Source: Anaerolineae bacterium (GTDB taxonomy: Bacteria; Chloroflexota; Anaerolineae; SpSt-313). Taken from it: a stretch of DNA of 64,000 bases. The DNA is taken from contig DAOUGZ010000024.1 of assembly GCA_034428955.1 (NCBI GenBank), positions 5,804-69,803 on the forward strand, in the 5' to 3' direction. Positions 1 to 38,481 of this stretch are shown one piece after another (position 1 is the first letter of the stretch; the number at the start of each line of letters is the position of its first letter). Position numbers and translations under genes: made by a program. The notes under the pieces are model-generated. The model searched no databases and was not told the DNA's origin. It worked only from the letters and a program-made list of their open reading frames with translations.

Positions 1-120
1 TTCAGCAAGAGCACAAGCAGTTCTGCGCCCCCTGGGCGCCACATAGTTCAGCAAGAGCACAAGTAGTTCTGCGCCCCCTGGGCGCCGCATAGTTCGGCAA
101 AAGCACAAGCAGTCTGGCAT
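1..120. repeat. Tandem direct repeat, unit ~46 bp, ~2.6 copies (ttcagcaagagcacaagcagttctgcgccccctgggcgccacatag). Each unit contains a GCGCC..GGCGC hairpin-capable core.
   Basis: Units at 1-46 and 47-92 differ at 2 positions; a third, degenerate partial unit follows. Seen directly in the sequence. Confidence 0.8.
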
Positions 121-199: not shown

Positions 200-1336
200 A
201 TGGCGCCTATGGGTGCCTACCAAGCACCACGTCGAAAGCTTCTCCGCTATTCCATCTCGTTAGGCCTCAGCGTTGCGGGGTGCGGGCTCGTCATACTGGC
301 GCAGCAACTGCCTCCTGTACGCTCCGAGGCCGCACAGGCCTCTGTTCCGAGTGAGCGCCCGTTCCCCGTCGCTGTCAGCGCCCGCGGCCCCCGGCAGGCG
401 GGCTGGGTGCGCCCAGCCGAGGATCTGCCGGTGTTGGCCCTGGGGAGCGTGCAGTCTCTGATGACCAACGATGAGGTCTTGCCGACGGCGACGCTCGAGC
501 CGACACCCACCCTCGCCCCCAGCCCCAGCCCAACCACTCCTCCCCCTGAAGTGGTGGTGTATCAGGTCCAGCCGGGAGATAACTTGTGGATCATCTCCCA
601 GCGCTTCGGCCTGGAGCAGGACACTGTCGTCTGGGCTAATGCGGAGCTGGAGCGTAACCCCGATCAGTTGCAGATCGGGCAAGAGATCTATATCCTGCCT
701 ACCGACGGCGTTTGGCACACTGTGAGCAAGGGCGAGACGCTGGCCTCTATCGCCCAGCGCTACAAGGTGGATGCCCAAACCATCCTCAACTACCCGGGCA
801 ACGACATTACGGACCCGTCGACGATCAAAATCGACCAGAAGCTGATCATCCCCGGCGGGGTCAAGCCGGCCCCAACAGGCGCCGCGGCAGGCCCGGCCAA
901 GGCATCCATCGCCCCGGGTGGGGCGCGGCTTATGATTCCGGCCGGCGCGCCCGCTGTGCCGGTGGAGGCACCGGCCATGCCTGGCCGCTTCCTCTGGCCG
1001 GCGTCAGGGGTCATCACCCAAGGCTATCACAAGTATCACGGGGCCATCGACATTGCCAACAACCAGGGCACGCCCCTCATCGCGCCCGACGGCGGCACGG
1101 TCACCTTTGCCGCTTGGTCCGGCGGGCTGGGCAACGCCGTCCAGATCGACCACGGCGACGGCTTTGCCACGACCTACGGGCACTTGCACACGATCCAGGT
1201 GCAAGTCGGCCAGAGGGTTGAGCGCGGCCAGCAGATCGGCTTGATGGGCACGACCGGTCACTCAACCGGCCCGCACCTGCATTTCATCGTGACCTACAAC
1301 GGCGGCATCCTGAACCCAATGAACTATTTGCCGTAG
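200..1336 (+). CDS. Secreted/membrane-anchored peptidoglycan hydrolase: two LysM domains plus a C-terminal M23 (LytM-type) metallopeptidase domain.
   Basis: ORF 122..1336. In-frame ATG at 200 preceded by GGAGGAGG. N-terminal hydrophobic segment. LysM-like segments (YQVQPGDNLWIISQRFG.. and HTVSKGETLASIAQRY..). M23 motifs HxxxD (HGAIDIA) and HLH (GPHLHF). Confidence 0.85.
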   Translation: MAPMGAYQAPRRKLLRYSISLGLSVAGCGLVILAQQLPPVRSEAAQASVPSERPFPVAVSARGPRQAGWVRPAEDLPVLALGSVQSLMTNDEVLPTATLEPTPTLAPSPSPTTPPPEVVVYQVQPGDNLWIISQRFGLEQDTVVWANAELERNPDQLQIGQEIYILPTDGVWHTVSKGETLASIAQRYKVDAQTILNYPGNDITDPSTIKIDQKLIIPGGVKPAPTGAAAGPAKASIAPGGARLMIPAGAPAVPVEAPAMPGRFLWPASGVITQGYHKYHGAIDIANNQGTPLIAPDGGTVTFAAWSGGLGNAVQIDHGDGFATTYGHLHTIQVQVGQRVERGQQIGLMGTTGHSTGPHLHFIVTYNGGILNPMNYLP

Positions 1337-1464
1337 CGGTCTGTCAGCCTCTGCCGCCGCAGACCGGACTCCAGGCCGGCACGGGGGCGCGAAGCGTATA
1401 GCCCGGTCGCCGGCTCAAGCTATTGCAGTCTGACAGGTTGTTGGCCGTCCGGGCGCAAAGGGAT

Positions 1465-1507
1465 AAACAGGCGCGGCTCTCTCTACAGAGAGGGCCGCGC
1501 CTGTTTT
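1465..1507 (+). terminator. Rho-independent terminator-like hairpin (~18-bp stem) followed by a T-run (ctgttttcg).
   Basis: aaacaggcgcggctctctc ... gagagggccgcgcctgtttt, downstream of the peptidase stop. Confidence 0.6.
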
Positions 1508-1526
1508 CGTCCGCTTCGATTCCGGC

Positions 1527-2042
1527 ATGGATGTTGCTCATAGAGGCAAAAAGCCGGTGAGAGGAGGTTGGGGCTTGAAGGTTGCTGCGGGCGTGCTTGC
1601 TGTTCTGGCCATCGTCATGGCTGTGGTGCCCTCGGTCGCCAACTGCTCGCAGGCGGGCGAGGGGGTGACTCTGGCCAACGGTCGGCGTGCGCCGGCCCCA
1701 TGCCACGGAACGGCGCAGGCCGAGGTGGCGGTGGCGGCGCTGCTCATGGCCGTGGCGGGCCTCCTCGCCTGTAGTTGGCGCCAGGAGACGCGGCTGGCGC
1801 TGGCCGGGTTGGGGTCCATTCTGGGGGCGCTGGCTATCCTGCTGCCGGTGATTCTGATCGGCACGTGTCCTTCATCCGCGGCGCTCTGCAATCGCCTCAT
1901 GCGCCCTGCGCTGATTGCGTCCGGTGCGGGCACAATCCTCACAAGCGTGCTGGTATTTGCCCTGGCCGCCAGGCGTTCCGAGTATGCACAGCGGCCACGG
2001 AACGCCCGCGGGCGCGTACGCTACCTGCGCCGCAACGGCTAG
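1527..2042 (+). CDS. Small 4-TM membrane protein with four conserved Cys (DUF4418-like); tandem paralog 1.
   Basis: Hydrophobic helices. Conserved motifs NC..TLA(N/D)G.R.P..C..TAQAE and LIG.C..S.A.C shared with the next ORF. Start uncertain (ATG 1527, or TTG 1575 after GAGAGGAGG). Confidence 0.6.
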   Translation: MDVAHRGKKPVRGGWGLKVAAGVLAVLAIVMAVVPSVANCSQAGEGVTLANGRRAPAPCHGTAQAEVAVAALLMAVAGLLACSWRQETRLALAGLGSILGALAILLPVILIGTCPSSAALCNRLMRPALIASGAGTILTSVLVFALAARRSEYAQRPRNARGRVRYLRRNG

Positions 2043-2052
2043 TAGTGCACCG

Positions 2053-2103
2053 CAGAGATTCTGATGGGTGCGACTCGCCCCGTGCGGCGCCATGTTACTC
2101 ATA
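2053..2103 (+). repeat. Dispersed ~50-nt intergenic element, copy 1 (agagattctgatgggtgcgactcgccccgtgcggcgccatgttactcata); second copy at 56416-56468.
   Basis: ~85% identity between the two copies. Both begin 10-12 nt after a TAG stop on the + strand. Confidence 0.7.
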
Positions 2104-2168
2104 GGGTCTTGGCGTTTCCTCATGGTACGGATTTTGCTCAGAGAAGGCACATTGTCAGGAGATGGGCC

Positions 2169-2666
2169 ATGAAACTGAGCGCACTTTTGATCGCGCTGTT
2201 GGCCGTCACTGTGGCTGTGGTTCCATTTGTCTTCAACTGCCGAGTTGAGGGCAGGATGATGACGCTGGCCGACGGCGGCCGGATGCCGCCCAGGTGCTAC
2301 TGGACGGCCCAGGCCGAGCTGACGCTGGCTGTGCCGTTGCTGGCGCTGGCCGGGATGCTGGCCTTCAGCCGGCGCAAGGAGGCCCGCCGAGCACTGCTGG
2401 TGCTGGGGGCCATACTGGGCGTCTTGGTCATTCTGCTGCCGGCGCGGCTTATCGGCGTGTGCGCAGATTCGGGCGCATCCTGCAAGCTGATCATGGAACC
2501 GGCGATAATCCTGGCCGGCAGCCTGTTGGCCGGTATCAGCTTGGCCAGCCTGCTGCTTTCCGAGCGCCGGTCCGAGTACGGCGATGAGCCGGTGCGCAGG
2601 CGCCCGCTACACGCAGCGGCCCGGCAGCGTGCCGGCGCTTCTATCGAGACTGGAGATGCGCATTAG
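2169..2666 (+). CDS. Small 4-TM, 4-Cys membrane protein (DUF4418-like); tandem paralog 2.
   Basis: ORF 2064..2666. ATG at 2169 after AGGAGA. Shares TM topology and Cys motifs with 1527..2042. Confidence 0.6.
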   Translation: MKLSALLIALLAVTVAVVPFVFNCRVEGRMMTLADGGRMPPRCYWTAQAELTLAVPLLALAGMLAFSRRKEARRALLVLGAILGVLVILLPARLIGVCADSGASCKLIMEPAIILAGSLLAGISLASLLLSERRSEYGDEPVRRRPLHAAARQRAGASIETGDAH

Positions 2667-2680
2667 AGAGGAGCGGCGGC

Positions 2681-3883
2681 ATGTGCCTCCTCCGCCTGGT
2701 GCGGTATAGCCCTGTGGGCAAGGGACTTGGGGGATGGGCAGCCTTTCTCTCGGCTGCCGTGGTGGCGGCGCTTTCGCTATTGACGGCGCTGATCCTGCAC
2801 GGCGCCGGCGCCTCGCTGGACCTGACTCTCACTCGGCTGGGAGCAGACATCGTCGTCGTCGGCCGGGGGGCCGAAGGTCACCTGGAGAGTTCCCTGGTCT
2901 TGGGTGCGCCGCTGCGGGTGTGGCTGCCGCAGGCGCACCTAGAGCGCATCGCGGCCATTCCTGAGGTGGCTGCCGTCTCGCCCCAGCTCTACCTTTCTGC
3001 GCTCCCTGAGCCCTCCGGCCGTGTCGCCCGGGAGGTCTTCCTCGTCGCCTGCGACCCGGCGACCGATCTATCGCTGCGGCCCTGGCTCGCAGAGGACCTT
3101 GTGGGCCGGCTGCGGCCGAAAGAGGCCGTCGGCGGCAGCAACGTCTCGGTACCCGCGGGCAAGGAGGGCATCAGGTTGTATGGTTCCCTGATTGCCCTAC
3201 GCGCCAACCTGCCGCCGACGGGTACCAACCTGGACCACACCCTCTTCTTCAGCTTTCAGACGGCCTACGATATCGCCGCCAACTCGTACCGGCTGGCCGA
3301 GCAGCCGCTGGTGATCCCGCCGAACAGCATCTCGGCGGCGCTGGTAAAGGTGCGTCCGGAGGCTGACCCGCACCAAGTCGCGTTGGAGATCCGCCGCAGC
3401 GTCCCCGGGGTCACACCCATCGAGCGTGCAGACCTCTTGCCGACGTTCCGAGGGCGAATCGCGGACCTGCGGCGGCGCATGAGGGCTACCTCTTACCCCA
3501 CGCTCGCACTCTTGCCGCCTCTTTTGGGCCTGATCCTGACGTTGACGGCCCAGGAACGGTGGCCCAAGGTCGCCGGCCTGCGCGCACTGGGTGCGACCGG
3601 CCATGATGTACTACGCTGTTTGCTGGCCGAGGCGGCGCTATTGGCCCTGCAGGGCGCGATGCTGGGCACGGCTCTGGCCGTGTTGGCGACGCGCCTTCTC
3701 CGCGAGCGCATCGCCGCCGCGCTCAAGATACCGCTCCTCTTCCCCCCTCTGCCCTCATTGCTGGCGTCGGTGGCCGGGGGCGCGGCTTTGGCATTGGCAG
3801 CGGTCGTGGCGGCTGCCTTGCTCCCGGCTTGGCGGCTCAGCCGGCAGGCGACGAGGCCGGCGACCCAGGGTAGGCCGCAATGA
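2681..3883 (+). CDS. FtsX-like ABC-transporter permease (MacB/LolC-type single FtsX domain). No cognate ATPase gene adjacent.
   Basis: N-terminal TM, large extracytoplasmic domain (..LGADIVVVGRG..), C-terminal 3-TM FtsX domain. RBS GAGGAG before ATG 2681. Confidence 0.7.
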   Translation: MCLLRLVRYSPVGKGLGGWAAFLSAAVVAALSLLTALILHGAGASLDLTLTRLGADIVVVGRGAEGHLESSLVLGAPLRVWLPQAHLERIAAIPEVAAVSPQLYLSALPEPSGRVAREVFLVACDPATDLSLRPWLAEDLVGRLRPKEAVGGSNVSVPAGKEGIRLYGSLIALRANLPPTGTNLDHTLFFSFQTAYDIAANSYRLAEQPLVIPPNSISAALVKVRPEADPHQVALEIRRSVPGVTPIERADLLPTFRGRIADLRRRMRATSYPTLALLPPLLGLILTLTAQERWPKVAGLRALGATGHDVLRCLLAEAALLALQGAMLGTALAVLATRLLRERIAAALKIPLLFPPLPSLLASVAGGAALALAAVVAAALLPAWRLSRQATRPATQGRPQ

Positions 3884-3973
3884 GGTTCCGCCTGTCGAGC
3901 TTGATGTACTTTGCCCAGTGGGCCGAGACCCAATCAGACCGGACATGACGGGCAAGCCGGCCCGCCGCTCTGT

Positions 3974-5044
3974 TCACGGAGTCTCTCCACCGCCCAAAGA
4001 CCTCACGCGGCGCAGAAAGAAAAAGCCGATGGCCAGCGGCAGCCATACGTTCAGCCCGCGGAAGGCGACGGTTATGGCCACCGCACTCGTCGTGGTGACG
4101 CCGAGCGAGGCGAGCACCAGCGCCATAGCGCCTTCGGCCACGCCGATGCCATGGGGGATGATCGTCACGATCGAAAAGACGATATTCAGCATATAGCCGG
4201 CGATCAGAGTTCCCGGGCGCAGCGGCCAGCCATAGGCCAGGGAGAGGGCATAGAGGCTGGCCAGGTTGACGAGGCATGCCGCCATGGCTACGCCCAGGGT
4301 GCTTCCCAGAAGGCGTGGCGCCTCGCTCAGACCCTTGGCTGCCCTGACGTAATCATCCGCCTGCTGCTCCGCCCAGGTCTCCGCCAGCGGCACCGGGCGG
4401 CCGAGTTGCCCCGCCAGCCCATTGACGATGTGCTGCAGGGCGCGGAAGAGGGCGTGAAGCCGGCCGGGCAACCAGCGCCCCAGCAAGATCATCCCGGCCA
4501 GAGAGCCGGTGAAGAGGAGCAGGATGGTGGAGGCGACGATCTGATAGGGCTCCAGGGCTTGCCGGTAGGCGAGGTGATGCAGGCCATAGGCTACCAGCGG
4601 CAGGATGGCCGTCAGGTCGGCGACCAGGACGAGCAAGGCACCCTGAGCGGCGCGCACGGCCGACTGGCCGCGGCGGGCCGCATCGTCGACAACGACTGCC
4701 AGCGCGCTGACGCCCCCAGACGGTACGATGGCTTTCAGGAACAGGGAAGCAAAGAGCACCGGCACAAGGTCGCGCACACGGCTTTCAACGCCGACGCTGG
4801 CCAAGCCGAGCCGATATTCGGCAGCGTACACCAGGTAGAAGGCGCCCTGTAGCAGCGCGGCCGCCAGTATCCATGGCCAACGGCCGCGCCCCAGCGTGCT
4901 GAGGACTCGCACTACCTCTTGTTGGCGCACAGCAACGAGGGCTGCAAAGCCCGTGAGGATTAGGACCAGCAGCCAACGGCGGCGTAGATGGGTGAGCAGG
5001 CGGTGGTGGTGCATCGATGGATCGGATGGGTCTTGGATCGACAC
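3974..5044 (-). CDS. UPF0104/LPG-synthase-TM (flippase-like) family integral membrane protein.
   Basis: ~8 predicted TM helices. Family-typical length and hydrophobic pattern. Divergent from rph. Confidence 0.65.
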   Translation of the reverse strand: MSIQDPSDPSMHHHRLLTHLRRRWLLVLILTGFAALVAVRQQEVVRVLSTLGRGRWPWILAAALLQGAFYLVYAAEYRLGLASVGVESRVRDLVPVLFASLFLKAIVPSGGVSALAVVVDDAARRGQSAVRAAQGALLVLVADLTAILPLVAYGLHHLAYRQALEPYQIVASTILLLFTGSLAGMILLGRWLPGRLHALFRALQHIVNGLAGQLGRPVPLAETWAEQQADDYVRAAKGLSEAPRLLGSTLGVAMAACLVNLASLYALSLAYGWPLRPGTLIAGYMLNIVFSIVTIIPHGIGVAEGAMALVLASLGVTTTSAVAITVAFRGLNVWLPLAIGFFFLRRVRSLGGGETP

Positions 5045-6026: not shown

Positions 6027-6472
6027 GGCTCGGCGATCAGCTCCTGCGGCGCCCAGGCCATGGCCTGGGTGTGTAGCCAGGCCAGTTGCCGGTCTGTCTC
6101 CGCCCCCAGGTTGGCACAGACCGATTCCAGTGTCGAGTCGCACAGGACCCGCGCCGCCTGGCCGAGCACGACCCAGCGCAGGTGCACGCTCTGGGCCAGG
6201 AGCCACGCATTCTGTAGGTCTTCCAGCAGGGGGTGCGTCTCTGCGGCAGGGGCCAGCACGGGCAGGCAACTGGCGAGCGCCGCCTCGGCGTTTAGCGGGC
6301 GCCCCGTGAGCTTGCTCAGAACGCGAATGTGCTCTTCGGACCAGGCAGCGAGCCGGGTACCGGTAAAGCCGATATCGAGTTCATCGCTGTGGCGCTCACC
6401 CAGGGCGATCAGCGCGTCTGCCAGTTGCCTCTCGGCAATCAGGAGGAGATCCACATATTCCCATACGCGCAT
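6023..6472 (-). CDS. Hypothetical 149-aa protein encoded immediately downstream of (and overlapping) the molybdoenzyme gene; possible dedicated chaperone/accessory protein.
   Basis: Strong RBS GGGGAGGA 5 nt before ATG 6472. 77-nt overlap with the 3' end of the upstream gene in another frame. Codon usage matches the genome. Confidence 0.45.
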   Translation of the reverse strand: MRVWEYVDLLLIAERQLADALIALGERHSDELDIGFTGTRLAAWSEEHIRVLSKLTGRPLNAEAALASCLPVLAPAAETHPLLEDLQNAWLLAQSVHLRWVVLGQAARVLCDSTLESVCANLGAETDRQLAWLHTQAMAWAPQELIAEP

Positions 6473-8885
6473 ACCTGTCCTCCCCGGCGGTTGGCGCCTT
6501 TCCGATGCGCAGGCGGAAGCGCCTCAGCAGCGAGCGCAATCGCTCACCCAGCGAGGGCTGGGGGATGCCGCAAATGCGCACGGCGGTGTACTTGAGCAGC
6601 GGCTGTTTGCTGACCGGATCCCACTGGCCCAAGGTGAGTTCGTTGGCGGCGCGGATGCGCGAGGGTCCATCCCAGTAGCCGTAGTGAAAGGGCATAAAGA
6701 CCACTCCGGGTGCGATCCTGCCGATTTCCGCCCGTGCCAGGGCCAGCCCCCGGCGCGAACGGACCTCGACCATCTGGCCCGCGACGATGCCCTGGCGGCG
6801 GGCGTCCTCCTCTGAAATCTGCACAAAAGAGTCCGGCGCGGCGTCGTTCAGCACAGGGACGCGCCCCGTCTTGGTGCGCGTCAGCCACTGGTAGACGACC
6901 CGTCCTGTCGTCAGCCAGAGGGGATACTCCTCGTCGGGTGCCTCCGGCAGGGGCGCGCCATCGATGGGCTTGAGCAGCGCTCTGCCCTGCGGGTCTTCTG
7001 CGCTGTAGGCAGAGCGGCCGATCTCGGCGCCGGTCAGCAGATCGTGCCCATAGGTCTGACAATAGTCGGCGCTGGTGTTGAACCGCCCCCCCTCGTACAG
7101 CCGTGGCCGGCCCTCGGGATACTGCTCGTTGCAGGGCCACCGGATGCCCGGGCCGCCGCTGAGCCGGGCATAGCTGAGCCCGCTATAGTCGCAGGGGCGC
7201 CCCCTGGTGCAGGCCTTCCAGGCCTCAAAGGCTCCCTCGGGGTCACTCCATTTGATCAACGGCGCGCCGTCACGGTCGCGCAGGTCCATGAGCCGGGCAT
7301 AGTCGAGAAAGATGTCCAGGTCCGGCCTCGCTTCGCCGGGCGGGCTGGCCGCCGTGTAGGAGATGTGCACCGTCCGGTCGGCAGCGGTGAACGTGCCCGT
7401 CTTTTCGCCCCAGATGGCCGCCGGCAGCACGACATCGGCCAACTGCGCCGTCTCCGTCATGAACGCATCCTGGACGACGAGGAATAGCCCGGCGGAGCGC
7501 AGCGCATTGCGCACGCGCAGCAGGTCCGGCAGCGATACCGCCGGGTTGCTGCCGGTGACCCAGAGCATGCGTATCGAGCCCTCTTCGATGTAGCGCAGTA
7601 TGCGCATGATGTGCGTTGGCGGCCCCCAGCAGGGGATGCGCGAGGGCTCGACGTTCCAGAGGCGCGCCAGTTCGGCCATGTGCTCAGGATTGGCCCAGTT
7701 GCGAAAGGCCGGAAAGGTGCCCGCGCAGCCGGTCTCGTGGACGTTGTGGCTGGCGGGCTGCCCGCTCATGTGCAGGATGCCGCATCCCGGCCGCCCGATC
7801 AGGCCGCGCATGAGGTGCAGGTTGTTGATCTGGACTGCCGTCGCCGTGGCCTGCGCGGACTGGTACACGCCCAACAGTACCGTGGAGACGAGGCTGGGCG
7901 TCGTTCCGAGGATCTGGGCCGCTCCACGTATGTCGTCGACCGGCACGCCCGTTACCGCCTCCACGCGCGCGGGTGACCACTCTCTGACCGATTTCTTTAG
8001 GCGCGCATACCCCAGGGTGTGGGCATCGATATAGGCGCGGTCGACCCAGCCGGATTGGATAATGATGTTGATGAGTCCGCAAAGCAGGGCGGCGTCGGTC
8101 CCCGGGCGCGGGGCCAGGTGGACGTCGGCGGCCTGCGCCGTAGGGGTTTTGCGCGGGTCGATGACGACCAGCCGGGGTGGCCGGGGGCCGGCGCGACGGT
8201 CCAGGATGCGCATCCAGAGCACAGTGTGTTGCTCGGCGACGTTGTGCCCGACGTGCAGGATGGCCTCTGCTGTGTCCAGGTCGCTGAATGAGCCGGGCTG
8301 GCCGTCTGTGCCGAACGACTCCATCAAGGCGGCCGAAGCGCTGGCGGTCGATAGCCGGGTGCTGGCGTCCATGTGCGGGGTACCCAGGCCGGCCTTGCCG
8401 ATAACGGCCAGGGTATAGTACTCTTCCAGAAAGAGCTGGCCACCGGTGTAAAAGGCGATGGCTAGGCTGGTATGATCGGCGCGAATCTGCGCCGAATGCT
8501 CGGCCACCAGGCCCAGCGCCTCCTCCCAACTGACCTCGCTCAGCCGCCCGTTCCGGCGGACTAGAGGGTGGGTGAGCCGGTCGCTACTGGCGTTGGCCAG
8601 CCAGCCGTAGAGCCCTTTGGGGCCGAGCCGGCCGCGATTGGTGCCGTCTGCGCTGCGCCCGCGCACGCCGACCATGCGCCCATCTCGCACGCCAATGTCC
8701 AGCCCGCAACCGTTGGAGCAGAGAACACAGGCCGATTGTACCCAGAACTCGGCCTCAGCCAGTACTCGCTCATCCAAGCGTGTTGGCCAGTCGCCCTCGC
8801 CATAGTAGGGCGTGCGGTACCCCCATATGGACGCAATAGCATCGCGCGACTGGTACTCCTCTGTCTCTCGCCTGCCGAGCATCAT
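6396..8885 (-). CDS. Molybdopterin (Mo-bisPGD) oxidoreductase, nitrate-reductase/formate-dehydrogenase superfamily, cytoplasmic (no Tat signal).
   Basis: 829 aa. N-terminal C-x2-C-x3-C Fe-S motif (SACVLCSNGCG) followed by GRLGPKG where canonical enzymes have GRLC.KG. MopB-type domains and a C-terminal molybdopterin-binding region. Confidence 0.85.
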   Translation of the reverse strand: MMLGRRETEEYQSRDAIASIWGYRTPYYGEGDWPTRLDERVLAEAEFWVQSACVLCSNGCGLDIGVRDGRMVGVRGRSADGTNRGRLGPKGLYGWLANASSDRLTHPLVRRNGRLSEVSWEEALGLVAEHSAQIRADHTSLAIAFYTGGQLFLEEYYTLAVIGKAGLGTPHMDASTRLSTASASAALMESFGTDGQPGSFSDLDTAEAILHVGHNVAEQHTVLWMRILDRRAGPRPPRLVVIDPRKTPTAQAADVHLAPRPGTDAALLCGLINIIIQSGWVDRAYIDAHTLGYARLKKSVREWSPARVEAVTGVPVDDIRGAAQILGTTPSLVSTVLLGVYQSAQATATAVQINNLHLMRGLIGRPGCGILHMSGQPASHNVHETGCAGTFPAFRNWANPEHMAELARLWNVEPSRIPCWGPPTHIMRILRYIEEGSIRMLWVTGSNPAVSLPDLLRVRNALRSAGLFLVVQDAFMTETAQLADVVLPAAIWGEKTGTFTAADRTVHISYTAASPPGEARPDLDIFLDYARLMDLRDRDGAPLIKWSDPEGAFEAWKACTRGRPCDYSGLSYARLSGGPGIRWPCNEQYPEGRPRLYEGGRFNTSADYCQTYGHDLLTGAEIGRSAYSAEDPQGRALLKPIDGAPLPEAPDEEYPLWLTTGRVVYQWLTRTKTGRVPVLNDAAPDSFVQISEEDARRQGIVAGQMVEVRSRRGLALARAEIGRIAPGVVFMPFHYGYWDGPSRIRAANELTLGQWDPVSKQPLLKYTAVRICGIPQPSLGERLRSLLRRFRLRIGKAPTAGEDRYARMGICGSPPDCREATGRRADRPG

Positions 8886-35910: not shown

Positions 35911-36309
35911 TCAAAAGATGAACTGCAGCGCCAAACTCACCAGGAGGACGCCGGCTTGGATGGCCGTGACCTTGAGCACGCGCCGGTAAAAGAGCCCCTG
36001 GCGCATCCCGGCCCGGTAATAGTACTCAAAGAACACAGAGAGTGCAACTCCGGCACAGGCTAGAACGAGCAGCATGCCCCGATCGATGGCGCCGATAGTC
36101 CAGCCATAGTCGCTGCGCCCAACCACTAGCCCCTGCAAGCGCTCGACCGTCACCTGGCGAAAGGCCCACCACTCCATAAACTCTTGCAGGGCAGCGCGAG
36201 CGAACAGAACGTCGAGCAGGAGCAGCGCCGTAGACCCTAACCAGGAGACGACGTACAGCACCGTCTCCCACCAGCGAACCGGCCTTTGCTCGATACTATC
36301 CAAGAACAC
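35911..36309 (-). CDS. Small 4-TM membrane protein (hypothetical), last gene of the opp-type operon (14-nt overlap with the oppF-like gene).
   Basis: Hydrophobic profile and overlap with the upstream gene. Confidence 0.5.
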
Positions 36310-37375
36310 CTCGCAACTGCAGATCGCGGGCCAGGTGGCAGCTCACAAAATGCCCGGGGCTGACCTCCTCCAGCTTGGGTTCCTCCTTGGCGCACACGTC
36401 TTTGGCGTAGCGACAGCGCGGATGGAAATAGCACCCCGAAGGCGGGTTGGCGGGGTTGGCCACCTCGCCGGGCAGCTTGATCGGGCGGTCCCTCCGCCGC
36501 GGGTCCGGCTTGGGCACCGCCGCCATCAAGGCCTCGGTGTACGGGTGCTTGGGATAGTTGTACAGGTTCTCGGTGCTCGCCACCTCCACCAGCTTGCCCA
36601 CGTACATCACGGCCACCCGGTCGCTGATATGCTCCACCACGCTCAGATCATGGGCGATAAAGATGTAGGTCAGGCCAAACTGGGCTTGCAGGTCCTCCAG
36701 CAGATTGAGCACCTGCGCTTGAATCGAGACGTCCAGCGCCGAGACCGGCTCGTCGCAGATGATTAGCTCGGGGTTCAGGGCCAGCGCACGGGCGATGCCC
36801 AGGCGCTGACGCTGGCCGCCGCTAAAGGCGTGCGGGTAGCGGCTCATGTACTCGGGGCGCATGCCTACGGTGCGCAGGAGGTCGGCGACGCGGTCTTTTA
36901 GCTCCTGGCCCTGGGCCACCTTGTTGATAATCAGCGGCTCGCCCACAATGCGCTCGACGGTCATGCGCGGGTTCAGCGAGGAGAAGGGGTCCTGGAAGAT
37001 GATCTGCATATTCGGCCGCACCGCTGCCAGCTCCTGGCGTGTCATCTGCTCCAGGTTCACCCAGCCCAGCTTGGGGTCGTTGAAGCGAATCTCCCCGGCT
37101 GTGGGCGGCATGAGCCGCAGGATGGTGCGCCCGGCTGTGGTCTTGCCGCAGCCGCTCTCGCCCACCAGGCCCAGGGTCTCGCCGCGACGCACGAACAGGT
37201 CCAGGCCGTCAACCGCCCGCACTGTGCCGGTGACCCGCCGCAGCAGACCCGTCTGCACGGGAAAGTGCTTCTTCAGCCCCTTGACATCCAGAAGCAGGTC
37301 CCCTTGCCCCTGGCCCGAGATAAGCCCATCGCGCGCAAGTCCCGTGGGGCTGGGCTTGGCATCCACATTCATCAC
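36296..37375 (-). CDS. oppF: Oligopeptide/dipeptide ABC-transporter ATP-binding protein (OppF/DppF-like).
   Basis: Walker [10 protein letters not shown]; signature LSGGQRQR; C-terminal oligopeptide-type extension. Confidence 0.85.
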
Positions 37376-38481
37376 TCTTCCTCCCCCGCTTCCGAGTGCA
37401 AGAAGCAGCGCACAGTGTGCCTCTTACCCAGATCCGTCTCCGCCGGCACCCGCACATCGCAGACCCCCGCCATGAACGCGTTGCAGCGCGGGTGGAAGGG
37501 GCAGCCCTTGATGCTCGCGTACGGGTCCGGCACCACGCCCCGGATCGGCTGCAGCCGGGCCTTGGTGCGGCTGCCGACGTGGGGGATCGAGTTGAGCAGG
37601 GCCTTGGTGTAGGGATGCTGCGGGTCGTAAAAGAGGTCCTCCACCGACGCATATTCGACGATCCGCCCCAGGTACATCACGGCCACCGTGTCGCACATCT
37701 GGGCCACCACCCCCAGGTTGTGGGTGATGAAGACGATGGTCATGCCCATCTCGGCCTGCAACTCGCGCATCAGGTCCAGAATCTGGGCCTCGGTCGTCAC
37801 GTCCAGCGCCGTCGTCGGCTCGTCCGCAAAGAGCACCGACGGCGCGCACGAAAGCCCCATGGCGATCATGGCGCGCTGACGCATGCCCCCCGAGAGTTCG
37901 TGCGGGTAGCGCCGCACGACGTTGCTGGGGTTGGGCATGCCGACACGATCCAGGATGTCTATCGCGCGCTCTTCGGCTTCCTGCTTGCTGCAATGCTGGT
38001 GGAGCAGGATGGCCTCCATGATCTGGTCGCCGACGGTGTACGAGGGGTTCAGCGAGGTCATCGGCTCCTGAAAGATCATGGCCAGCTCGGCGCCGCGGAT
38101 GCTGCGAATGACCGGGCCATGGGGGTCCAGGTCCGTGAGGTTCACATCCTCGGTGATCGTGCGGCTCGCGTTCCGCTCCCGCGTGCGGTGGAGGTGGATC
38201 TCGCCCTTGACGATGCGGCCCGGATGCGGCACGAGGCGCATGATCGACAGGGCGGTGACGCTCTTGCCGCAGCCGCTTTCCCCCACCACACCCATCACCT
38301 TGCCGGAGGGCACGTCAAAGCTCACGCCGTTCAGCGCCCGCGATACGCCCAGATCGGTGTAAAAGTAGGTGTGCAGGTTCCTCACCCGCAGGATGGCGCC
38401 GGACTCCGCCACGGCTGATCCCTTTTGCTCGCTCATCGCGTATCCGCCTCCCATCCTAGATCGAGTAGGGATCAACGGCAT
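37372..38481 (-). CDS. oppD: Oligopeptide/dipeptide ABC-transporter ATP-binding protein (OppD/DppD-like).
   Basis: Walker A GESGCGKS; LSGGMRQR; 4-nt overlap with oppF. Confidence 0.85.

Follow-up and report, generated by a model that had tools for sequence, protein, structure and literature searches.

Why should a gene for an FtsX-type permease stand directly behind two tandem genes for small membrane proteins of the family DUF4418, with no ATP-binding cassette (ABC) ATPase gene beside it? This question is raised by a locus in a stretch of 64 kb from an Anaerolineae bacterium (Chloroflexota; contig DAOUGZ010000024.1 of assembly GCA_034428955.1, positions 5,804 to 69,803), which will be referred to as the window. 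The two DUF4418 genes and the permease gene form a compact plus-strand unit between a hairpin and a convergent gene (Table 1). The explanation that we favour, with reasonable though not strong confidence, is that the locus arose by lineage-specific remodelling from a widespread and probably copper-related module consisting of DUF4418, FtsX and a LolD/MacB-type ATPase, and that this offshoot is now either independent of the ATPase or decaying.

The identities of the three genes were evaluated first by hidden Markov model searches, as proposed in the first-pass annotation of this DNA, which had been made from the letters alone. All three genes scored above the Pfam gathering cut-offs, which are 27 bits for DUF4418 and 25.5 bits for FtsX, the permease reaching 38.5 bits. 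The first-pass annotation had described two adjacent paralogous open reading frames (ORFs) on the same strand, an FtsX-type permease within 15 nt of the second and a next gene on the other strand. Each of these points held: the two DUF4418 proteins are 51% identical over 132 amino acids (E = 2e-35), the permease gene starts at 2681, and the gene that follows, LPG_synthase_TM according to Pfam, lies on the minus strand. The frame given for DUF4418 copy 2 (2169-2666) was correct, whereas that of copy 1, drawn from 1527, was too long at its 5′ end. Most likely, copy 1 starts with the TTG at 1575, which follows the sequence gagaggagg and gives the N-terminus MKVAA, aligning with the MK start of the family; a public gene call (P0131) is exactly the resulting 155-residue product. 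For the longer form of copy 1, the FtsX and two start variants of the convergent gene, searches for an exact public product returned no match. The permease shows the layout of one transmembrane (TM) segment, about 220 extracytoplasmic residues and three further TM segments, and all four TMs are recognizable in the alignment.

To place the locus, 51 related loci were collected, 49 of them by scanning one genome per GTDB species with a six-sequence alignment as query and two (L002 and L003) by a look-up of the exact products. The scanned loci derive mostly from Chloroflexota (Anaerolineae), but also from Bathyarchaeota, Acidobacteriota, Desulfovibrionaceae, Oxalobacter, Budvicia and Clostridia. 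In 39 of the 51, mostly from Chloroflexota, the genes are arranged in the order DUF4418, one or two FtsX and ABC ATPase, which bears out the claim of the first-pass annotation that DUF4418 proteins are tied to FtsX/MacB-type transporters. The same order was found at three loci (L053, L054 and L055) reached through relatives of the window FtsX in the protein database, with FtsX identities of 55% (P0013) and 51% (P0016). Since the ATPase of the relatives is of the LolD/FtsE/MacB type, the canonical module is a type VII ABC system with DUF4418 in front. Tandem DUF4418 genes occurred in none of the 51 loci. Where two FtsX genes are present (L006, L013, L014 and L028), the first subunit lacks and the second carries a Cys-Cys pair that is described below, and both keep the motifs for coupling to the ATPase, which suggests an asymmetric heterodimer. 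DUF4418 also occurs without FtsX (L008 and L012). At a further locus (L020, 10504-10686) an FtsX remnant of 61 amino acids from the C-terminal part, 54% identical to residues 329-389 of the window protein, directly follows an intact DUF4418 gene beside multicopper oxidase genes; this is a clear case of a transporter half decaying while DUF4418 is kept. Because of these three loci, two without FtsX and one with the remnant only, DUF4418 appears to be able to act alone, the transporter half being the part that seems dispensable. A literature search yielded no functional study of DUF4418, its mention being limited to a transcriptome table of Bifidobacterium longum in which DUF4418 and an adjacent ABC permease go down together.

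In agreement with the first-pass annotation, no ABC ATPase is encoded near the window locus. Walker A and LSGG motifs in the 64 kb were confined to two adjacent OppD/OppF-like genes, which are the only ABC ATPase genes of the window and unrelated to the FtsX locus, and no MacB/LolD-type ATPase was detected in the window. Tblastn searches with three cognate ATPases from relatives returned the OppD/F-like genes alone, with approximately 30% identity, and the spacer downstream of the FtsX gene showed no similarity to an ATPase. The first-pass annotation had pointed to a cognate ATPase just outside the window as a finding that would speak against it; on an independent Logan contig (L057), the 1,285 nt upstream of the window carry a divergent aldehyde:ferredoxin oxidoreductase gene instead. 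Nevertheless, the absence of the ATPase alone is not decisive, because a Bathyarchaeota locus (L029) has an FtsX gene without adjacent ATPase gene, yet its product keeps the Cys-Cys pair and all coupling motifs. What marks the window locus is that its ATPase gene and the motifs of its FtsX have both been lost.

The loss of motifs became evident when the window FtsX was aligned with 117 homologs. The hallmark of this clade is an extracytoplasmic Cys-Cys (…SPQLYL.(S/T)L..ASCCS…) after the SPQ(L/V)(Y/F) strand, which, like a cysteine in TM1, is conserved in 99-100% of the homologs and is kept in Chloroflexota, Budvicia, Oxalobacter, Clostridia and Bathyarchaeota. In the window protein it is replaced by Gly-Arg. 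Three cytoplasmic motifs, an N-terminal helix that closes with F-R-S/T, a post-TM2 E-R-x-R-E-x-G and a C-terminal (M/I)R(E/x), are kept in 29 diverse relatives; by analogy with the solved structures of MacB and LolCDE, we take them to be the ATPase-contact elements. All three are replaced in the window FtsX: N-terminal LAWRNI.GNAFRS has become LVRYSPVGKGLGGW, post-TM2 NERRRELGVLRALGATR has become QERWPKVAGLRALGATG (NERRRELGV to QERWPKVAG) and C-terminal DPA.AMRE has become RPATQGRPQ. In addition, several conserved methionines are exchanged for Leu or Val. Altogether, the window protein deviates at 33 of the 138 columns with a conservation of 90% or more, the highest value among the 118 sequences, for which the median is 4.

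These losses are non-random. They are also specific to the window lineage: the closest relative (L056) keeps the Cys-Cys pair as well as the coupling and PMKC motifs. Identity to the window proteins amounts to 62% for its FtsX, compared over 184 residues from the N-terminus, and to 66% for its DUF4418, compared with copy 2; L056 retains LAWRNIAGNVFRS, ASCCS and PMKCYW, and 64 of 71 conserved columns compared to 54 of 71 in the window FtsX. The branch leading to the window FtsX is accelerated: the protein is less similar than its L056 counterpart to all 117 outgroups, with mean identities of 46.1% and 58.3%, respectively, whereas DUF4418 copy 2 is barely accelerated in the same test (37.1% versus 39.2%). 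A scan of the JGI metagenomes with the window FtsX retrieved a single relative of 30% identity and no close relative with the same eroded motifs. The protein matched no NCBIfam family, including FtsX_Gneg, FtsX_Gpos and FtsX_actino (the relative at L004 matches the cell-division FtsX models weakly, far below their cut-offs), and its PDB sequence matches, to MacB and LolC, were not significant (E = 0.37 or worse). It also gave no match at E < 0.01 to PF12704, the MacB-like periplasmic core, of which some homologs carry a weak or precomputed match. In terms of its sequence, the permease is an FtsX-domain protein without the cognate ATPase gene and the coupling motifs of an ATP-coupled type VII permease. 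This targeted erosion of FtsX, rather than its mere orphaning, is the most telling feature of the locus and had been missed in the first-pass annotation, as had the methionine loss in the DUF4418 proteins and the copper-gene setting of the family.

Of the explanations that compete with a remodelled or decaying offshoot, a normal split ABC system survives best. The permease would then be fully functional and driven by a MacB/LolD-type ATPase whose gene lies in another part of the genome, its odd motifs reflecting co-adaptation to a different ATPase. The intact ORF with native codon bias and the four recognizable TMs are in line with this, as is the example of L029, and the sequence surveyed comprised the window plus 1.3 kb on its upstream side. 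However, L029 keeps the coupling motifs and the Cys-Cys pair, all of which the window FtsX has lost, and even the subunit without Cys-Cys in two-FtsX operons still has its coupling motifs. Moreover, each of the 117 comparisons shows an accelerated window branch, and the DNA reaching 1.3 kb upstream and 60 kb downstream contains no such ATPase. A split system is therefore rather improbable, although it deserves some weight.

The DUF4418 proteins present a different picture from their permease. Conservation was evaluated in 52 proteins from the related loci and in the 150 best representatives of 1,113 clusters (50% identity), obtained by an exhaustive profile search of 1.84 billion proteins. Four cysteines, C24, C43, C98 and C105 in the numbering of copy 2, which is used throughout, are present in both window copies. 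They were found in 51, 52, 52 and 52 of the 52 locus proteins, and among the 150 representatives they account for 115 of 127, 147 of 149, 140 of 143 and 135 of 138 residues, respectively (91-99%). The identical arrangement of four cysteines that the first-pass annotation had noticed in the two paralogs with four TM helices (N-C...C(H/Y).TAQAE ... LIG.C..S.A.C) is thus a family trait; the annotation would have been contradicted by small proteins without a DUF4418 match or without conserved cysteines in their homologs, and what was found is a match for both and near-invariant cysteines. The surroundings of the second cysteine, at the start of helix 2, form a near-invariant motif P-M-K-C-(H/Y/F)-W-T-A, with Met41 in 141 of the 150 representatives. 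Here the window departs from the family: copy 2 reads PPRCYWTA and copy 1 PAPCHGTA, so that the methionine is gone from both. Copy 1 is the more divergent one, with PMKC changed to PAPC and W45 to Gly. The Pro/Gly landmarks are retained in both copies. Profile match and cysteine pattern place both small proteins in DUF4418, and their M-x-C motif is an atypical one.

Several observations bear on whether the locus is maintained. All three ORFs are open, their alignments to homologs are nearly free of indels, and approximately 2.1 kb of frame contains no frameshift. Shine-Dalgarno sequences are kept ahead of all three starts, at the correct distance for copy 2 and FtsX. The GC content at third codon positions (GC3) is 0.79-0.81 (FtsX 0.81), and the pattern over the three codon positions matches that of neighbouring genes. 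Assemblies of two other sequencing runs contained an identical sequence (Logan contigs L001 and L057), the FtsX 3′ junction lying outside that support. Intact ORFs, kept ribosome-binding sites, the native GC pattern and the recurrence in two runs argue against long neutral decay; they favour selection that still maintains the fold, at any rate in the DUF4418 pair. This evidence also weighs on the view that the whole locus is a non-functional relic whose three decaying ORFs are open just because stop codons are rare in DNA of 66% GC. In favour of this view are the lost ATPase, the FtsX that is the most deviant of 118 sequences and the absence of the near-invariant methionine from both DUF4418 copies and of W45 from copy 1; L020 shows that such decay happens, and the JGI metagenomes contain no close relatives of this variant. 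Against it stand, besides the frames, ribosome-binding sites, codon periodicity and recurrence just described, the four cysteines and Pro/Gly landmarks preserved in both copies and the merely slight acceleration of copy 2. We consider a complete relic unlikely.

With regard to topology, each DUF4418 copy contains four TM helices and an Arg-rich C-terminal tail of 20-30 amino acids. An AlphaFold model of copy 2 (predicted local distance difference test, pLDDT, 72) depicts four long helices in a bundle with a short hairpin in loop 1. According to the positive-inside rule, the cytoplasmic side is marked by the RRKEARR loop and the Arg-rich tail, so that the four cysteines are predicted to lie outside, at the outer helix ends in two outer loops. 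This supports the suggestion of the first-pass annotation that they face one side of the membrane. The FtsX Cys-Cys pair of the relatives would be located on the same side, which is consistent with a common metal or thiol chemistry.

A candidate for this chemistry emerged from the gene neighbourhoods, for which all flanking ORFs were clustered and the cluster representatives annotated. In 33 of the 51 loci at least one copper-handling gene lies within 10 kb, the set comprising multicopper oxidase, cupredoxin, CuA-like COX2 domain protein, YtkA/FixH, HMA-type P-type ATPase, DsbD_2 and FTR1/P19/FtrD. Several independent arrangements were seen. In one, genes for a multicopper oxidase, Cupredoxin_1 and a small unknown protein precede DUF4418-FtsX-ABC, with NosD-like and multihaem cytochrome genes downstream in L054 and L055; in another (L004, L005 and L010) the module is flanked by a YtkA/FixH-like gene on one side and by DsbD_2 and HMA/ATPase-cat_bd P-type ATPase genes on the other. 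In a third, the gene ahead of it encodes a fusion of a COX2-like cupredoxin with a Fer4_5 membrane domain (motif C-x3-C-x3-H-x2-M). In Desulfovibrio and Oxalobacter, genes for FTR1, P19, FtrD, two FtsX and an ABC ATPase are directly followed by DUF4418-FtsX-ABC. One further locus annotated by Pfam, from a Chloroflexia metagenome-assembled genome (L012, 8778-14207), has genes for a fusion of a helix-turn-helix (HTH) domain with NosL, for DsbD_2 and for a CopC-CopD fusion flanking the DUF4418 gene without FtsX, and represents a putative compact copper-handling island. The YtkA domain (CtaK) has been implicated in CuA assembly and CopC-CopD (YcnJ) in copper import (PMC13344008). The "metal or redox site" of the first-pass annotation thereby gains a specific candidate, namely copper or copper-related thiol chemistry. 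None of the copper-related neighbour genes of the relatives was found in the 64 kb of the window, and a literature search on FtsX and copper returned nothing relevant.

As a separate observation, five loci (L032, L036, L037, L040 and L048) share a block upstream of DUF4418 that encodes a multihaem cytochrome, a TatC-like protein, a cupredoxin, an iron-sulfur protein with a twin-arginine translocation (TAT) signal resembling reductive dehalogenase together with a small membrane anchor, and a COX2-like/Fer4_5 protein; a pyrroloquinoline quinone (PQQ)-type beta-propeller is encoded downstream of their ABC ATPase.

The cysteines of DUF4418 could also serve in a membrane thiol oxidoreductase like DsbB or VKOR that acts on the FtsX Cys-Cys or on client disulfides and has no metal site. 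The build predicted for DUF4418, four TM helices and two outer loops with two cysteines apiece, is also that of DsbB; reductant-transfer proteins of the DsbD_2 type and thioredoxin-type partners appear repeatedly in the neighbourhoods, and VKOR is among the weak Foldseek matches of the DUF4418 model (E = 2.8, TM-score 0.39). The spacings, however, are C-x18-C and C-x6-C, with no CXXC, and the Foldseek search of the PDB gave generic four-helix bundles, none with E ≤ 0.001 (best E 1.4). Sequence searches of NCBIfam and the PDB likewise revealed no specific family for DUF4418. An enzyme of this kind is in our opinion unlikely.

Finally, we rejected as highly improbable an FtsEX-EnvC/PcsB-like regulator of cell-wall hydrolysis with the DUF4418 proteins as unrelated passengers: FtsX proteins do control M23-like and other hydrolases (FtsEX), and the gene immediately upstream, in the same orientation, encodes an M23 peptidase with two LysM domains, but a strong terminator hairpin separates it from the DUF4418 operon, the FtsX belongs to the DUF4418-linked clade (52-62% identity) without matching an NCBIfam cell-division FtsX, no M23 gene recurs beside DUF4418 in the 51 loci, and no FtsE is encoded in the window.

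We return to the preferred reading, a remodelled offshoot of the DUF4418/FtsX/ATPase module. In the family, an ATP-driven type VII (mechanotransmission) ABC complex would act at the outer face of the membrane. The extracytoplasmic domain of its FtsX would bear the Cys-Cys pair and have the four-helix DUF4418 as its physical partner, which would present four cysteines and the Met-x-Cys-His/Tyr motif at the same outer face. The most likely role of such a complex would be to serve extracytoplasmic copper proteins, either by handling Cu(I) or by maintaining copper-binding thiols in a competent state. In the window, the ATPase gene is gone, and FtsX, without the Cys-Cys pair and the three ATPase-contact motifs, has evolved faster. 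The transporter half would therefore no longer be ATP-driven and would be either a passive membrane partner or heading for loss. The DUF4418 pair is the part still under clear constraint and, if active at present, probably has a cysteine-based metal or thiol function by itself. A more far-reaching version of this proposal appears to us speculative and rather doubtful: DUF4418 would be a Cu(I)-binding or thiol-relay membrane subunit of an unrecognised type VII ABC machine that moves copper to or from extracytoplasmic cuproproteins (multicopper oxidases, cupredoxins, CuA centres and P19), and the window would preserve a "minimal" form of it that has arisen in nature, two diverged DUF4418 paralogs working without ATP drive and an ATPase-independent FtsX serving as scaffold only.

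Several points weigh against the reading that we prefer. The intact FtsX ORF of 400 codons argues against simple pseudogenisation, and an ATPase may be encoded in trans, with L029 as a parallel, given that our view ended 1.3 kb upstream of the window and at its downstream end. The copper link of DUF4418 and of the FtsX clade is drawn from gene neighbourhood, 18 of the 51 loci have no copper genes in the available sequence, and the lack of such genes in the window means that a function at the level of the family may not be valid here. Confidence in the structure model of DUF4418 is moderate, and the placement of the four cysteines is a prediction from sequence.

The history of the DUF4418 pair differs from what had been assumed. 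The first-pass annotation had called it a recent local duplication, which is refuted by the degree of divergence. The coding sequences of the two copies are 62% identical and their third codon positions 51% in a genome with a GC3 of approximately 0.8; the same codon is used at just 46% of the amino acids conserved between the copies. With 66% identity to P0002 and 55% to L004, copy 2 also resembles foreign orthologs more than it resembles copy 1, for which the value is 49%. Copy 1 forms a long branch, although its best match is nonetheless copy 2. The duplication is old, with third codon and synonymous positions near saturation. The annotation had further quoted a leader, catg[g/t]tgtt[g/a]ctcatag, before both genes. 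A common leader element does exist, but the quoted pattern fails literally; the actual repeats are ATGTTGCTCATAG at 1531, ATGTTACTCATAG at 2092 and ATTTTGCTCAGAG at 2131. The 15-mer GATKTTGCTCAKAGA occurs in the window at 1530 and 2130 only, in equivalent positions, compared to a chance expectation of 0.18 occurrences, and GATGTTGCTCATAGA, 31 nt upstream of the copy 1 start, and GATTTTGCTCAGAGA, 25 nt upstream of copy 2, are the sole two matches in 64 kb. The common leader supports a tandem duplication that took in the upstream region. The element may be functional because it is better preserved than synonymous sites. An Rfam scan of 1300-4100 gave no match, neither for the leader element nor elsewhere, and a sigma-70 scan found no plus-strand promoter.

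The features of the locus and its surroundings are listed in Table 1. The hairpin upstream of the DUF4418 genes is likely the intrinsic terminator of the LysM/M23 peptidase gene, which it would set apart from the DUF4418 operon. For that gene, the ATG at 200 after AGGAGGAGGA fits the gene call of 378 amino acids on contig L057, and the mechanical ORF from 122 is too long. The tandem repeat upstream of it has fewer copies on L057, so its copy number varies between samples. Downstream of the locus, an ORF of 829 amino acids clusters with molybdopterin oxidoreductase-like ORFs near DUF4418 in L012, L024, L045 and L052; this recurrence is weak and may be coincidental.

Table 1. Coordinates of genes, repeats and signals in and around the DUF4418/FtsX locus of the window.
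Feature	Position	Strand	Description
Tandem repeat	1-113		46-nt unit, 2.5 copies, 92% matches; upstream of LysM/M23 gene
LysM/M23 peptidase gene	200-1336	+	two LysM domains
Hairpin	1465-1506	+	20-bp near-perfect stem, 95% complementary, 2-nt loop, then TTTTCG
Leader motif GGCATGGATGTTGCTCATAGA	1524-1544	+	31 nt before copy 1 start; homologous to 2124-2144; direct repeats D1, D3
DUF4418 copy 1	1575-2042	+	155 amino acids, TTG start; PF14387, 44.9 bits, E = 1.7e-11
Extra 13-nt leader copy ATGTTACTCATAG	2092-2104	+	spacer between the DUF4418 genes; direct repeat D1
Leader motif GGTACGGATTTTGCTCAGAGA	2124-2144	+	25 nt before copy 2 start; direct repeat D3, 81% identical to 1524-1544
DUF4418 copy 2	2169-2666	+	165 amino acids; PF14387, 64.8 bits, E = 1.1e-17; identical public protein P0001
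FtsX-type (type VII ABC) permease	2681-3883	+	400 amino acids; PF02687, 38.5 bits, E = 1.4e-9, residues 284-389
Spacer, FtsX stop to stop of convergent gene	3884-3973		90 nt; ABC ATPase gene sits here in relatives
LPG_synthase_TM gene	3974-5044	-	convergent to FtsX; Pfam
829-amino-acid ORF	6396-8885	-	clusters with molybdopterin oxidoreductase-like ORFs
Two OppD/OppF-like ABC ATPase genes	36296-38481	-	adjacent

The locus can be compared with several known systems. Like PF14387 members in general, the small proteins combine a four-helix layout with four conserved cysteines, and they differ by their tandem genes, the Arg-rich tails, the missing Met of the M-x-C motif and, in copy 1, W45. With the type VII ABC systems MacB, LolCDE and FtsEX the permease has in common the FtsX C-terminal domain and the arrangement of one TM, about 220 residues and three TMs, whereas an ATPase gene is absent and erosion has affected the coupling motifs at the N-terminus, after TM2 and at the C-terminus. 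The FTR1-P19 cluster of Campylobacter jejuni (CJJ81176_1649-1656) comprises two FtsX-type permeases, an ATPase and thioredoxins, and relatives in Desulfovibrio and Oxalobacter place DUF4418-FtsX-ABC after similar genes; the substrates of the C. jejuni permeases were stated to be unknown, and the published description lists no DUF4418-like gene (PMC6083913). The window has none of these partner genes. Copper-trafficking accessories (YtkA/CtaK, CopC-CopD/YcnJ, NosL and NosDFY) flank DUF4418 modules in relatives and have published roles in supplying copper to oxidases (PMC13344008). They show no sequence kinship with DUF4418 or the window FtsX, the link being one of neighbourhood only, and none is found beside the window locus.

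To our knowledge, the delivery of copper to enzymes outside the cytoplasmic membrane is poorly understood, especially for multicopper oxidases and cupredoxins and in bacteria beyond the model Proteobacteria and Bacillus. A MacB-type mechanotransducer with a Cys-Cys pair, combined with a four-cysteine membrane protein and recurrent in copper operons across phyla and in Archaea, represents a testable candidate for such delivery. The window locus shows which parts of it are dispensable, namely the ATPase, the Cys-Cys pair and the coupling helices, and what is retained on breakdown, the four cysteines of DUF4418. Taken alone, the window locus most likely represents a derived remnant rather than a new machine; it is the pattern at the level of the family, a Cys-Cys MacB-type machine with a four-cysteine partner in copper operons, that is worth following.

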